Shown here: piece by piece, positions 21,001 to 24,000 of the stretch
Numbering within the stretch: position 1 is the stretch's first letter
Layout: every line of letters starts with the position of its first letter
NCBI GenBank assembly: GCA_963676565.1
Contig: OY781089.1
Coordinates: forward strand, 1,312,001-1,376,000
Reading direction: 5' to 3'
Source of the DNA: Halarcobacter sp.
Lineage (GTDB): Bacteria > Campylobacterota > Campylobacteria > Campylobacterales > Arcobacteraceae
Length of the DNA: 64,000 nucleotides
Position numbers: made by a program

Positions 21001-24000
21001 TATAATCTAAACCAGCACAAACTTTTTCTCTGATTAATGCAGCATTTTCACCAATACCACCTGTGAAACATAATGCGTCAACACCATCAAGTGCTGCAGC
21101 GTATGCACCAACATAATGTTTGATTTTATAAGCAATCATATCAACAGCTAATCTACATCTGTCGTCACCAGCTTCAGCACCTTCTAATACTTCTCTTAAG
21201 TCTGAAGATTTACCAGAAATACCAACAATACCAGATTTTTTATTTAATACATCAAGCATCTCTTTGATATTCCAACCTTCAGTTTCCATCATATACTGAA
21301 TAGCACCTGCACCAATGTCTCCAGCTCTTGTTCCCATCATTAAACCTTGAACAGGAGTAAGACCCATTGATGTGTCAATACATTTACCATCAAATACAGC
21401 TGAAACAGATGAACCATTTCCTAAGTGACAAACAATAATTCTTGTATTATGTTTTTTATCTAACATTTTTGCTGCTTCATTTGATACGAAGAAGTGTGAT
21501 GTACCATGGAAACCATATTTTCTTACACCATTTTTAGTATATTGCTCATGTGGTAATGCATACATATAAGCATAATCTGGCATAGTTTGGTGGAATGCAG
21601 TGTCAAATACAGCTACATTTGGCTTACCTGGCATTAATTCTTGACAAATTTCCATACCCATAATATTTGCAGGGTTATGTAAAGGAGCAAGTGGAATAAG
21701 TTTTTTCATAGTTTCAATTACTCTATCGCTTACCATAACAGAACCAGCAAACTCTTCTCCCCCGTGAACTGCTCTGTGTCCAATCGCCTCAATATCATCA
21801 ATTGAGTCAATAACTTTACCTTCACCATCAGTTAATGTTTTTAAAACTAATTCAATAGCTTCTTTATGAGTTGGTAAATTTGAATCAACTTTAATTTTTT
21901 GACCATCACCAAATTCATGTTTTAATACACCATCAATACCAATTCTTTCACAAATACCTACTGCTAAAACTTCTTTATTAATTGGATTCATTAATTGATA
22001 TTTTAATGATGAACTTCCCGCGTTTAAAATAAATACTAACATATGTCTTTTCCCTCTTTTAAATTAGTTTTTTTAATTAACATTGTGTTGCAGTAATTGC
22101 AACTAAATTTGAAATGTCTTCAACTGAACAACCTCGTGATAGGTCATTAACAGGTTTATTTAATCCTTGTACAATTGGTCCATGAGCTGCTGCCCCTGCA
22201 AATCTTTGAACTAATTTATACCCAATATTTCCTGATTGTAAATCAGGGAATACTAGTACATTTGCTTTTCCAGCAACTGAAGAATTTGGTGCTTTTTTAG
22301 CTCCAATAGCTTCAACGATAGCAGCATCAGCTTGCATCTCTCCGTCATATGCAAAATCAACTTCTCTATCTTCTAAAATTCCGCAAGCAAATTGTACTTT
22401 ATCAACTAATGGATGTTTTGCACTTCCCATAGTAGAGAATGATAACATTGCTACTCTTGGCTCTAATCCAACAACGCTTTTTGCAGTAGCTGCTGTTGCA
22501 CTTGCAATATCAGCTAATTGTTCCGCATTTGGCTCTGGATTTACTGCACAGTCTGCAAATAAAATTAAACCATTATCACCAAATTTTCCATCTGCAGTTT
22601 CCATAATAAATGTAGATGATACAGTGTTAATACCAGGTGCTGTTTTAATTACTTGAATTGCAGCTCTTAAAACATCTGCAGTTGGTGAATTTGAACCAGC
22701 AACTAAACCATCAGCATCTCCAAGTCTTACCATCATACAACCAAAAAATCTTGGTTCTGTTGTCATGATTTCAGTAGCTTCTTCTTTAGAAAGACCTTTT
22801 TTCTTTCTAAGCTCAACTAATTCATCAATATAAGCATCAATTTTATCAAAAGATTTTGGGTCTATAATAGTAGCACCCTCAATGTTTGCACCGCATGAAG
22901 CAGCATCACTTTTGATTGTTTCTTCATTTCCAATCAAAATAACATTTGCAGTTTTTTCCTCTAGAACAATTTGAGTAGCTTTTAATACTCTTTCGTCCTC
23001 AGATTCTGGAAGAACTATTGTTTTTAGCTCTTTCCTTGCATTCTCTTTTATACTTTCAATTAAACCCATTAAAGCTTCCTTTTTTGTAAAAATCATAAAA
23101 TTATATTATTCAAACATAGCAAAAACATAGCATTAGTGTAGCATTTTGTAAAAAAAATTGTTCAAAAAAACCTAGTGTGTATCAATATTGTACATATTTG
23201 ATCAACTAGTATAAGTTTTGTATAGTTTTGTTGTGTATATTAGAATTGAGTTTAGTAAAAGGATTAACCTTTTACTAACTCATAAGTGTCATGTGCGATT
23301 ACATATTCTTCATTAGTAGGGATTACATAAATTTTAACTTTTGAGTCATCGCTATTTATTTCTCTAGCTTCCCCTGATCTAATTGCATTTTTTTCATCAT
23401 CAAGTTTTATTCCCATAAATTCAAGATTTTCACAAACTTTTTCTCTAACTAAGTTTGCATTTTCTCCAATACCTGCAGTAAAGCAGATTGCATCAACACC
23501 ACCTAGAATTGCTGCATATGATGCAATATATTTTTTAATTCTATTTGTCATCATTTCAATTGTAATAATAGCTCTTTCATTACCTTCTTCTGCTTCTTCA
23601 ATAACCTCTCTTAAGTCTGAACTAATCCCAGATACTCCTAAAAGACCTGATTTTTTATTTAAGTAGTTATTAACTTCATCTCCACTCATCCCTTTCTTTT
23701 CCATTAAGAAAGTTACAACAGTAGGGTCTAAATCACCAGATCTAGTACCCATTATTAAACCTTCCAGTGGAGTAAGTCCCATTGAAGTTTCAACTGATTT
23801 ACCATCTTTAATAGCACAAACAGATGAACCATTTCCTAAATGGCAAACGATAATTTTAGACTCTTCTTTATTTAATAGTTTTTGTGCTTCATTTGAAACA
23901 TAATAGTGAGAAGTTCCATGGAAACCATATTTTCTTATTCCAAAATTTTCATAATCTTCATATGGTATTGCATACATAAAAGAACTAGCAGGCATAGTTT

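Follow-up and report, generated by a model that had tools for sequence, protein, structure and literature searches.

A TGCTA direct repeat as the probable operator of an OmpR-family regulator clade linked to acetate uptake and activation in Arcobacteraceae

The TGCTA-N6-TGCTA box of the Halarcobacter sp. genome is real, and the repeat is probably (probability about 0.78) the operator of a clade of OmpR-family regulators that would activate acetate uptake and activation, with the response regulator RR-A as its main reader in this genome. This reading was reached by sequence comparison, i.e. from half-sites that recur every 11 nt, their constant distance of 11 nt from the -10 hexamer, and the linkage of box, clade and acetate genes, from which we infer the steps of the mechanism. 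Coordinates refer to the window, the 64,000-nucleotide stretch of DNA that was analysed, unless a contig position is stated.

In the intergenic DNA of this genome, TGCTA-N6-TGCTA was the first of 4832 spaced 5-mer tests, in agreement with the preliminary description, which had called it the most over-represented spaced word pair. It occurs in 14 intergenic regions against 0.28 expected (log10 p -18.8), and 100 dinucleotide shuffles gave a mean of 0.22 such regions and a maximum of 2. With the ORF calls of our analysis there are 19 exact matches genome-wide, 16 of them intergenic; among the three “coding” matches is the promoter of ald, counted as coding because the ald start was miscalled. The enrichment previously given as 16 promoter regions with p 1e-25 stands as an enrichment, with 16 matches in 14-15 regions and a p of about 1e-19. 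A count of 24 of 30 sites at no more than one mismatch being intergenic could not be reproduced: the 10-base core is intergenic in 33 of 120 cases, compared with 7.5% of the DNA. For the relatives, 19 exact sites had been set against no reversed ones, a control that we judge too weak because the reversed word contains CG and some low-GC genomes also reach 14-19 exact matches. These are genomes of other families without the regulator (G072, G086, G126), in which only 1-3 exact matches fit the refined pattern. The pattern was found in all 24 same-genus genomes searched. Only a spacing of 6 is enriched, each other spacing from 0 to 20 giving 0-5 intergenic matches, and the half-sites form arrays of three at pta and four at ald. 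A spacing of 6 equals a period of 11, within the 10-11 bp at which head-to-tail half-sites recur in OmpR/PhoB-type operators. The pho box of PhoB consists of period-11 direct repeats and replaces the -35 element about 10 bp before the -10, and the cre-tag of E. coli CreB is an OmpR-family period-11 direct repeat that precedes ackA-pta; the half-site words of both differ from TGCTA.

The type site lies before pta-ackA, where the three half-sites of period 11 described earlier are found as TAGCA on the plus strand (23117-21, 23128-32 and 23139-43), equivalent to TGCTA on the pta coding strand. The features of the window are as follows.

20843..22042, minus strand: ackA, acetate kinase (PF00871), in an operon with pta
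22077..23069, minus strand: pta, phosphate acetyltransferase, ATG at 23069 (TIGR00651 over cut-off; PF01515)
23100..23105, minus strand: predicted sigma70 -10 hexamer TATAAT, 11 nt past the last half-site
23117..23143, minus strand: type site, three TGCTA half-sites of period 11, pta-ackA promoter
23178..23194, plus strand: TGTAC-type motif of period 11, different from the box, upstream of the pta box
27109..29069, minus strand: DUF485 (yjcH-like) and ActP copy 2, then DUF294 and exonuclease genes
29161..29176, minus strand: box before the second DUF485-actP operon
29380..31343, minus strand: DUF485 and cation/acetate symporter ActP copy 1 (PF04341, PF00474; NF006903 over cut-off)
31389..31404, minus strand: proximal box of the first DUF485-actP operon
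31519..31534, plus strand: distal box of the first DUF485-actP region, in reverse orientation
31548..34000, minus strand: cNMP-CBS-DUF294 putative nucleotidyltransferase and 3'-5' exonuclease
34170..36338, minus strand: DUF4212 and VC_2705-family sodium/solute symporter (PF13937; TIGR03648 over cut-off)
36392..36407, minus strand: box with a single mismatch, immediately behind the regulator gene and 11 nt ahead of TAAACT
36442-36457: second box behind the regulator gene
36492..37154, minus strand: RR-A, OmpR-family response regulator (PF00072 and PF00486), proposed box reader
37135..38718, minus strand: histidine kinase with periplasmic sCache_2 sensor (PF17200)

Of 17 close pta loci, 15 carry the box, as against none of 62 distant ones. 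Beyond the family, the next relatives of pta come mostly from clostridia and Bacteroidota, and acs is absent from the Halarcobacter sp. genome. The two proteins of DUF485-actP copy 2 are 67% and 80% identical to those of copy 1. Relatives have a site at about the position of the distal box, in either orientation; the distal box also falls within a weak hairpin after the exonuclease stop. The TGTAC-type motif, which recurs at 29353-29369, is probably the site of another regulator.

In all 15 box-bearing pta promoters the last half-site ends exactly 11 nt before the -10 hexamer. A -10-like hexamer is found at +11 for 83 of 176 distinct sites in the family (34 at the next best offset, no more than 14 at any other), and outside the family the 11-nt gap is kept in 26 of 28 boxes (39 loci), against a mean of 1.0 for permuted matrices. 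OmpR/PhoB-type operators likewise hold a fixed position relative to the sigma70 -10 in activated promoters. The fixed gap is an activator geometry, and on sequence grounds the box is most likely an on-switch before promoters of acetate, aldehyde and aromatic-compound genes. Some boxes are reversed or overlap the -10 (livK, frdC, acnB). Such sites, together with the coverage of the -35 region, would suit a repressor operator serving catabolite repression, a very unlikely reading overall, given that a repressor could act without any set distance to the -10, while the 11-nt gap is constant from family to family, and that PceP of a relative is described as activating from sites overlapping the -35 (PMC7755780). 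Repression may still operate at frdC. The least credible of the alternatives takes TGCTA for the start of the housekeeping extended -10 (gnTAnaAT), repeated by upstream helical periodicity. The Campylobacterota sigma70 motif is indeed gnTAnaAT with a periodic signal in place of the -35 box (PMC3847290), which explains acnB and may explain frdC, but for the core sites this reading is refuted by half-sites that do not carry the A required at the fifth -10 position (8% A) and by a separate -10 located 11 nt downstream; the restriction of the enrichment to a single spacing and of the sites to a coherent gene set also argues against it.

We propose with fair confidence that the box is read by RR-A together with its sCache_2 kinase, a pair (36492-38718) that provides a candidate for the OmpR-type regulator suspected earlier and whose clade is linked to the box across the order. 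RR-A orthologs stand directly before the symporter cluster in 69 of 76 evaluable loci, all 69 of which have a box (score at least 14.7) in the gap behind RR-A, and the other seven have neither symporter cluster nor box. In the two genomes with a displaced RR-A that were examined, boxes are still found at actP and acs. Of 22 clade loci outside the family, 13 show a box in the 450 bp downstream and nine have none directly downstream; in wider windows the acs, DUF485-actP and porin genes that flank the kinase-regulator pair carry boxes. The box accompanies the clade there although the downstream gene varies (acs, actP, porin, chemoreceptor), in genomes that have just 1-5 refined matches altogether. 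The clade forms one branch in a quick tree (SH-aLRT 99). Of the 47 regulators of this genome that were aligned, only RR-A and its paralog RR-B belong to it, and the two share the recognition helix T-I-R-A-E; RR-B is encoded with a cytoplasmic FIST kinase beside ald (contig 99032-101583). In four family genomes with neither RR-A nor ActP, nine of ten pattern matches are in coding DNA and one is at a contig end. Order-wide co-occurrence of clade and box is only a tendency (a refined match in 32 of 40 clade-bearing versus 28 of 72 other genomes, where kin are not independent and genome size confounds).

Some observations would fit a different reader, namely an unlinked global regulator, with the neighbouring pairs sensing local substrates via other sites. 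The genome encodes 56 OmpR-type regulators; next to each of the acetate, ald and lactate clusters lies a separate two-component pair; regulator-site proximity within this genome is not significant (3 of 56 within 3 kb versus 1.7 for random genes, P 0.24); and G160 and G176 (94% complete) have promoter-region boxes with no clade member found, the exceptions to the co-occurrence of a REC and winged-helix regulator that marks OmpR/PhoB-type operators. An unlinked reader is nevertheless improbable, as across families the box tracks the RR-A clade despite the changing downstream gene, and no other candidate behaving in this way was found, the other 54 regulators not having been profiled singly. The regulator of the lactate cluster (contig 650983) was rejected as reader, having a different helix and falling outside the clade.

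The sCache_2 domain of the kinase spans about residues 30-210, and its best solved relatives are 2QHK, 4K08, 4EXO and 5G4Y. The kinase's pocket residues Y102, F104, Y155, W157 and K168 correspond to Y96, F98, F148, W150 and K161 of 4EXO, i.e. to the Y-x-F, aromatic-x-W and K of carboxylate-binding sCache_2 domains (PMC12415202), and each of the five is conserved in 73-77 of the 77 kinases from the family and in 13-14 of the 14 from outside it. Variation (Y, N, H, D) is seen at the pocket position on which the preference for lactate or pyruvate depends, and lactate and pyruvate are common ligands of sCache_2 domains (PMC12415202). Acetate does not support growth of A. butzleri RM4018, lactate and pyruvate being the substrates on which the species grows (PMC2147049), and A. 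butzleri both makes and consumes acetate (PMC9927503). This genome has no isocitrate-lyase or malate-synthase signature, judged by sequence motifs, and from this and the RM4018 phenotype it follows that the signal need not be acetate. It is possible, if unlikely, that RR-A binds the box in response to pyruvate, lactate or overflow (e.g. acetyl-phosphate), with pta-ackA switched on for acetate excretion and ATP gain, which departs from our preferred explanation only in the ligand. An acetate signal is favoured by the core outside the genus, an acs and actP scavenging set resembling the acetate-induced CrbR regulon (PMC5715377).

The preliminary description had noted a lack of expression data; two A. 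butzleri data sets do show co-variation, under stimuli other than acetate addition. In strain LMG 10828T, ald, yjcH, actP, ackA and pta rise together on host-cell contact (logFC 2.2-3.2; PMC9927503 Suppl. Table 3), and ackA1, pta, AB0504, ald, dctPQM and sox co-vary as a single block, which moves in opposite directions in two ECF sigma mutants (PMC3445524 Table 3). The boxes of A. butzleri itself are extrapolated from congeners; those at pta, actP, the symporter and soxC are each present in 3/3 of three named Aliarcobacter genomes.

The supported regulon, with target gene names verified by HMM, comprises pta-ackA, both DUF485-actP operons, the VC_2705-type symporter, ald, the PQQ alcohol cluster and the aromatic-island promoters, plus soxC in relatives, and to this extent the earlier target list holds. 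Its label of “global carbon catabolism” is overstated: by comparison across the order, the predicted conserved core serves to take up and activate acetate (acs, actP, DUF294, porin), and the broad regulon is a predicted expansion in the larger Arcobacteraceae genomes (median of 9 refined matches, versus 1-2 outside the family). Of the further targets claimed, acnB was rejected as a conserved core target, with a box score of at least 12 in only 2 of 30 orthologous promoters, a first half-site that is the extended -10 itself and a second that is not conserved. The frdC site is doubtful (7 of 30 orthologous promoters, overlapping the -10), as is the lactate site among the TRAP transporters, which forms part of a perfect hairpin that follows a stop codon. 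The aromatic island has two PcaR/PobR-type regulators (one below its curated cut-off). Boxes lie 22-23 nt upstream of IclR-type palindromes in 14 of 17 cases. The palindrome matches the IclR group-1 (PcaR/PobR type) operator consensus GTNCG-N5-6-CGNAC (PMC8222616), of which this genome has 4 copies.

In the mechanism that we propose, the sCache_2 kinase would bind an external short-chain carboxylate (most likely acetate, possibly pyruvate or lactate) and phosphorylate RR-A, which would sit head-to-tail on the half-sites, replacing the -35 element, and recruit sigma70 polymerase. RR-A would thus turn on uptake (DUF4212-symporter, DUF485-actP and porins) and activation, through acs or, where acs is absent as here, through pta-ackA. 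The RR-B/FIST pair, with nearly the same recognition helix, probably feeds alcohol and aldehyde signals to the boxes at ald and the PQQ cluster, and at aromatic promoters the box, two helical turns upstream of the IclR-type operators, would be a second, general input. The box is also predicted to drive a short non-coding transcript divergent from bioF, a conserved small-RNA candidate of roughly 60 nt outside the window (contig 141203-141263, minus strand) that, on the basis of sequence, may pair with DUF485-actP mRNAs. Covariation of RNA seed and target across genera is mixed: g68 and g71 score highest within their own genus, the RNAs of g1 match g20 targets better than g1 targets, and in g18, g20, g21 and g74 no pairing was found in the first 32 nt. 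Comparison of the transcript with Rfam small RNAs gave seven weak matches, none near the gathering threshold. A more ambitious version, which we consider rather unlikely, makes RR-A a general CRP-like carbon-source co-activator that activates simple promoters from the -35 and licenses IclR-controlled aromatic promoters from two turns upstream; the FIST-kinase paralog would read the same box as a second input, and an Hfq-independent RNA would pair with the start of DUF485-actP mRNAs in an incoherent feed-forward loop limiting acetate uptake.

No description of the TGCTA box, RR-A or the small RNA was found in the literature searched, most subscription journals lying outside the search. The closest functional parallel is CrbS/CrbR (MxtR/ErdR) of Pseudomonas and Vibrio, for which PMC5715377 describes two-component activation of acs, a small membrane protein-actP operon and a nucleotidyltransferase-domain gene from a site just upstream of an RpoD promoter, as here. 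This regulon core recurs in other genomes with boxes before acs and DUF485-actP(-DUF294), acs being absent here. The proteins differ: in the same source CrbS is an SLC5-STAC hybrid kinase and CrbR a LuxR protein with an ACTU inverted repeat, whereas the present kinase is sCache_2-HisKA-HATPase with symporters as separate genes, and the regulator is an OmpR protein on a direct repeat. The box system would work like CrbS/R without being homologous to it, as a convergent acetate switch. Within the same order, PceS/PceP of Sulfurospirillum includes an OmpR activator bound in gel shifts to CTATW half-sites of period 11 over the -35, with dehalogenation genes as targets and a half-site without TG (PMC7755780). 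PceP was rejected as reader or ortholog: the protein taken for PceP from its position next to the reductive dehalogenase genes of G047 shares 27% identity with RR-A, differs from it in the helix and lies on a separate branch outside the clade, and the site is CTATW-N17-CTATW. SulR/SulS of Sulfurimonas includes another OmpR-type Campylobacterota activator, with a direct-repeat footprint from -51 to -17, and regulates sox; some Arcobacteraceae have the TGCTA box at soxC. In the accessible part of PMC12936845 its repeat is TTACA and its signal thiosulfate, with no Cache domain mentioned there; this description sets it apart, and SulR was rejected as box reader on the motif.

According to a 2019 review, the ECF sigma factors were the only Arcobacter regulatory proteins with reported functions (PMC6682613). 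The present proposal supplies a named regulator, a predicted site, a promoter geometry, a candidate ligand class and a Campylobacterales-wide target list. It would offer a single downstream cause for the odd gene block moved oppositely by two ECF sigma mutants (PMC3445524), and would also cover the acetate genes induced on host-cell contact (PMC9927503). A pta whose next relatives outside the family are mostly clostridial or from Bacteroidota has been placed under the box where acs is missing, and an acetate switch built from OmpR and Cache modules instead of CrbS/R would show convergent evolution. Box and regulator together suggest that Arcobacter-type bacteria control their carbon sources through a system that has not been described before.

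The period-11 direct repeat TGCTA-N6-TGCTA (the box), which a preliminary description had reported as over-represented, is borne out in the 3.34 Mb, 28% GC genome that holds the window: it ranks first among 4832 spaced-word tests and occurs in 14 intergenic regions, where 0.28 would be expected and 100 shuffles give 0.22 on average. There are 19 exact matches genome-wide, 16 of them intergenic by our own ORF calls, and spacings other than six between TGCTA words give only 0-5 matches. A scoring matrix built from the 16 intergenic exact matches has a half-site of approximately (A/T)ATGCTA(T/C)(T/G)T, and scanning with it brings in weaker sites. 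The reversed-pattern control offered originally is weak because exact matches can number 14-19 in unrelated low-GC genomes, but the intergenic enrichment test holds independently, and we regard the box as almost certainly a real operator. Its type site is:

23117-23143, minus strand: TGCTA three times at period 11, ahead of pta (ATG 23069) and ackA

The box is present in 15 of 17 close pta loci (one further locus was excluded, its upstream DNA being missing), and in 15/15 TATAAT or TACAAT follows exactly 11 nt past the last TGCTA (+11); the boxless loci are L028 and a Marinobacter record. In the Marinobacter persicus record (L032), a pta 81% identical to that of the window lies in a 59% GC locus with no box, a possible transfer. 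None of 62 distant pta loci reaches a box score of 10. Across 80 loci of the family Arcobacteraceae, a -10-like hexamer is found at +11 in 83 of 176 distinct sites, at +8 in 34 and at every other offset in 14 or fewer; outside the family it is at +11 for 26 of 28 boxes. At ald, four GCTA half-sites are followed after 11 nt by TAAGAT, and relatives show this layout again. In the pho box, a bound protein replaces the -35 element. Campylobacterota sigma70 promoters are described as having a gnTAnaAT box but lacking a -35 (PMC3847290), so a protein at the box would stand in for it, an arrangement reported as demonstrated for PceP (PMC7755780). From this geometry we infer a role in activation.

The genome encodes 56 OmpR-type regulators, and regulator-to-site proximity within it is not significant. 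The candidate reader is the response regulator RR-A, found at the head of the acetate cluster:

36492-37154: RR-A, OmpR-type response regulator, followed by DUF4212-symporter-DUF294-exonuclease, two DUF485-actP operons, ackA and pta-ackA
37135-38718: sCache_2 kinase, heading the cluster together with RR-A

Immediately upstream of the kinase gene, at 38812-39525, are eight tRNA genes, a four-gene set present twice. Of 80 RR-A loci, the 76 with at least 3 kb of downstream DNA were evaluated: the symporter/acetate cluster directly follows RR-A in 69, with a box in the gap in 69/69, and the other seven (66-71% identity) have neither cluster nor gap box. Both members of the displaced RR-A form that were put in a tree sit on the RR-A branch, and boxes persist at actP and acs in two genomes carrying this form. 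RR-B, the nearest RR-A paralog in the genome (52%), has as its partner a FIST kinase encoded divergently from ald; the two regulators have a recognition helix in common. Together with their relatives they make up a single branch (SH-aLRT 99, quick tree), the clade, which is present in 49 of 121 genomes across the order Campylobacterales. A box lies within 450 bp downstream in 21 of the 30 best clade loci, and in 13 of 22 outside the family. In twenty wider windows, Cache-type pairs adjoin porin-DUF485-actP-DUF294 and acs, and FIST-type pairs adjoin aldehyde-oxidising genes. In four genomes of the family that lack both RR-A and ActP, nine of ten pattern matches are coding. Besides the proximity result, two points weigh against assigning the box to RR-A. 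Order-wide, a refined match (a hit to the sharpened box pattern) occurs in 32 of 40 clade-bearing versus 28 of 72 other genomes, the genomes being kin. G160 and G176, both 94% complete, carry boxes with no clade regulator detected; in G160 three of these are directly behind a kinase 44% identical to that of the window. On these sequence comparisons, we give a probability of about 0.78 to the box being an activator site of the RR-A clade. The presumed PceP was rejected as reader, as it falls outside the clade branch at 27% identity. In two clade loci, L198 (G090) and L205 (G040), a TAG stop occurs near the end of the regulator match, and the protein may be shorter.

Geometry and conservation together firmly predict pta-ackA, the symporter operon, both DUF485-actP operons and ald as targets; in relatives the firm set includes acs, porins and soxC as well. 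Likely targets in this genome are the PQQ alcohol dehydrogenase cluster, with five relaxed sites at +11, the Opr porin-rraA unit, the dctP TRAP unit and livK. Of the broad carbon-source regulon proposed initially, probably under an OmpR-type regulator, the regulator type is supported by the RR-A clade linkage, but not all of the targets stand. At acnB, which fails, the box is present in 2 of 30 promoters and its first half-site is the -10 itself; frdC is doubtful (7 of 30 at score 12, the site overlapping the -10, where it possibly represses), as is the lactate TRAP site, which sits within a perfect hairpin past a stop codon. The size of the regulon follows lineage: the median is 9 refined matches in the 37 genomes with a close RR-A, and 2-3 where RR-A is distant or absent. 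In family genomes, an adenylate-kinase-like gene has a box at its start in L325 (G146) and L344 (G176); G146 has acs, and its box there has +11 geometry. This placement would fit AMP recycling after Acs. In G087 (L295, 10282-11001) a +11 box precedes a gene with a start similar to that of pyruvate carboxylase subunit B, as read from sequence, with no HMM match at cut-off.

Published expression data touch several of these genes. After 30 min host-cell contact, A. butzleri LMG 10828T is reported to raise ald (+2.58), yjcH (+3.15) and actP (+2.90) jointly with ackA (+2.21), pta (+2.16) and an RraA-type gene (+2.46); ald, yjcH and actP are up in strain 31, and ald (-2.46) and actP (-1.49) are down in LMG 11119 (PMC9927503). 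In RM4018, ackA1, pta, AB0504, ald, dctPQM, sox, katG and hyaB rise with sigma2 and fall with sigma7, changes that the authors attribute to ECF factors (PMC3445524); our own reading is that one common downstream activator moves the block. In three named Aliarcobacter genomes a box was present at each of pta, actP, the symporter and soxC (3/3 in every case), a count based on 30 of 38 matches, with ald and dctP outside those 30.

The closest solved relatives of the sensor are 2QHK, 4K08, 4EXO and 5G4Y. Five residues of 4EXO are described as holding short carboxylates (PMC12415202), and all five are present and conserved in the sensor; the residue setting lactate versus pyruvate preference is Tyr in the window kinase and variable in others. 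The acs-actP core argues for acetate, which we favour slightly as the signal, with pyruvate, lactate or a mixed response as the less probable readings. Against acetate, A. butzleri RM4018 is recorded as not growing on it (PMC2147049), and the present genome has no acs above cut-off and no glyoxylate-shunt signature by motif search. The box is found on pta-ackA where acs is missing. Outside the family, the next relatives of the window pta are mostly clostridial and Bacteroidota proteins (53-58%).

One site, at contig position 141283, faces away from bioF and is followed by 11 nt, TATAAT, about 60 nt and a terminator (fold z -5.2):

G000:C1:141203-141263 (L005 3203-3263; present genome, outside the window), minus strand: candidate box-activated small RNA, divergent from bioF

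In nine same-genus genomes its 5' part hardly changes, while the terminator varies. The box (score at least 14) is present at 28 of 30 bioF loci, with a strict -10 at +11 in 24 of 30, and past this -10 come a conserved TACT-AATT-type leader and hairpin and a genus-specific body with a C/U-rich loop. No Rfam family fits, and no Hfq was found. The transcript could be a leader in genus g20, where the gene downstream has the same orientation. Overall, the small RNA probably exists. In a post hoc test on kin genomes, with background from the present genome, pairing of its 5' 32 nt with DUF485 start regions ranked in the top 5% of background in 22 of 52 windows, whereas the other cluster genes gave 7 of 192. 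Three windows from the same genus rank at 0-0.3%, and the two from the present genome at 0.9% and 3.8%. No such pairing was found in four genera, and the DUF485-actP start regions are a tentative target.

In form the site is a standard OmpR operator. CrbS/R, as outlined in PMC5715377, is alike in function, but the present system fell outside it in every structural membership test. The literature searched, mostly outside subscription journals, yielded no description of the box, regulator or RNA, and database names of the orthologs are generic.

A second period-11 motif, of TGTAC/TACA type, is seen at 23178-23194, 29353-29369 and ~41709; it lies upstream of pta and actP and, on visual inspection, in the majority of 30 acnB promoters (L428-L457). 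ATGTA-N6-ATGTA is among the top spaced pairs genome-wide, and the motif probably marks a separate regulon of OmpR type with a link to the TCA cycle. Also enriched are GTTAA-N6-GTTAA (18 regions) and TGTAA-N6-TGTAA (16), and inverted repeats of GTCCC with a 9-base gap (7) and TGAAT with a 4-base gap (11).

The box also forms part of composite promoters in the aromatic island, which encodes PcaR/PobR-type proteins. All four genomic copies of the palindrome GTNCG-TTAAG-CGWAC are found there, 22-23 nt past the last TGCTA:

G000:C1:2750469, 2756197, 2758156 and 2767519: IclR-type palindromes, aromatic-island promoters

The palindromes match the IclR group-1 consensus as given in PMC8222616, and lie about 17 nt before a -10, with an additional half-site upstream in a three-box layout. 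Counted over five genomes of the genus, the 22-23 nt spacing to a box holds for 14 of 17 palindromes. These promoters may share one ancestor and hence not be independent; their flanks have drifted and the box has been retained. They are the best evidence for a role beyond acetate, and suggest that the box may act as a general second input.
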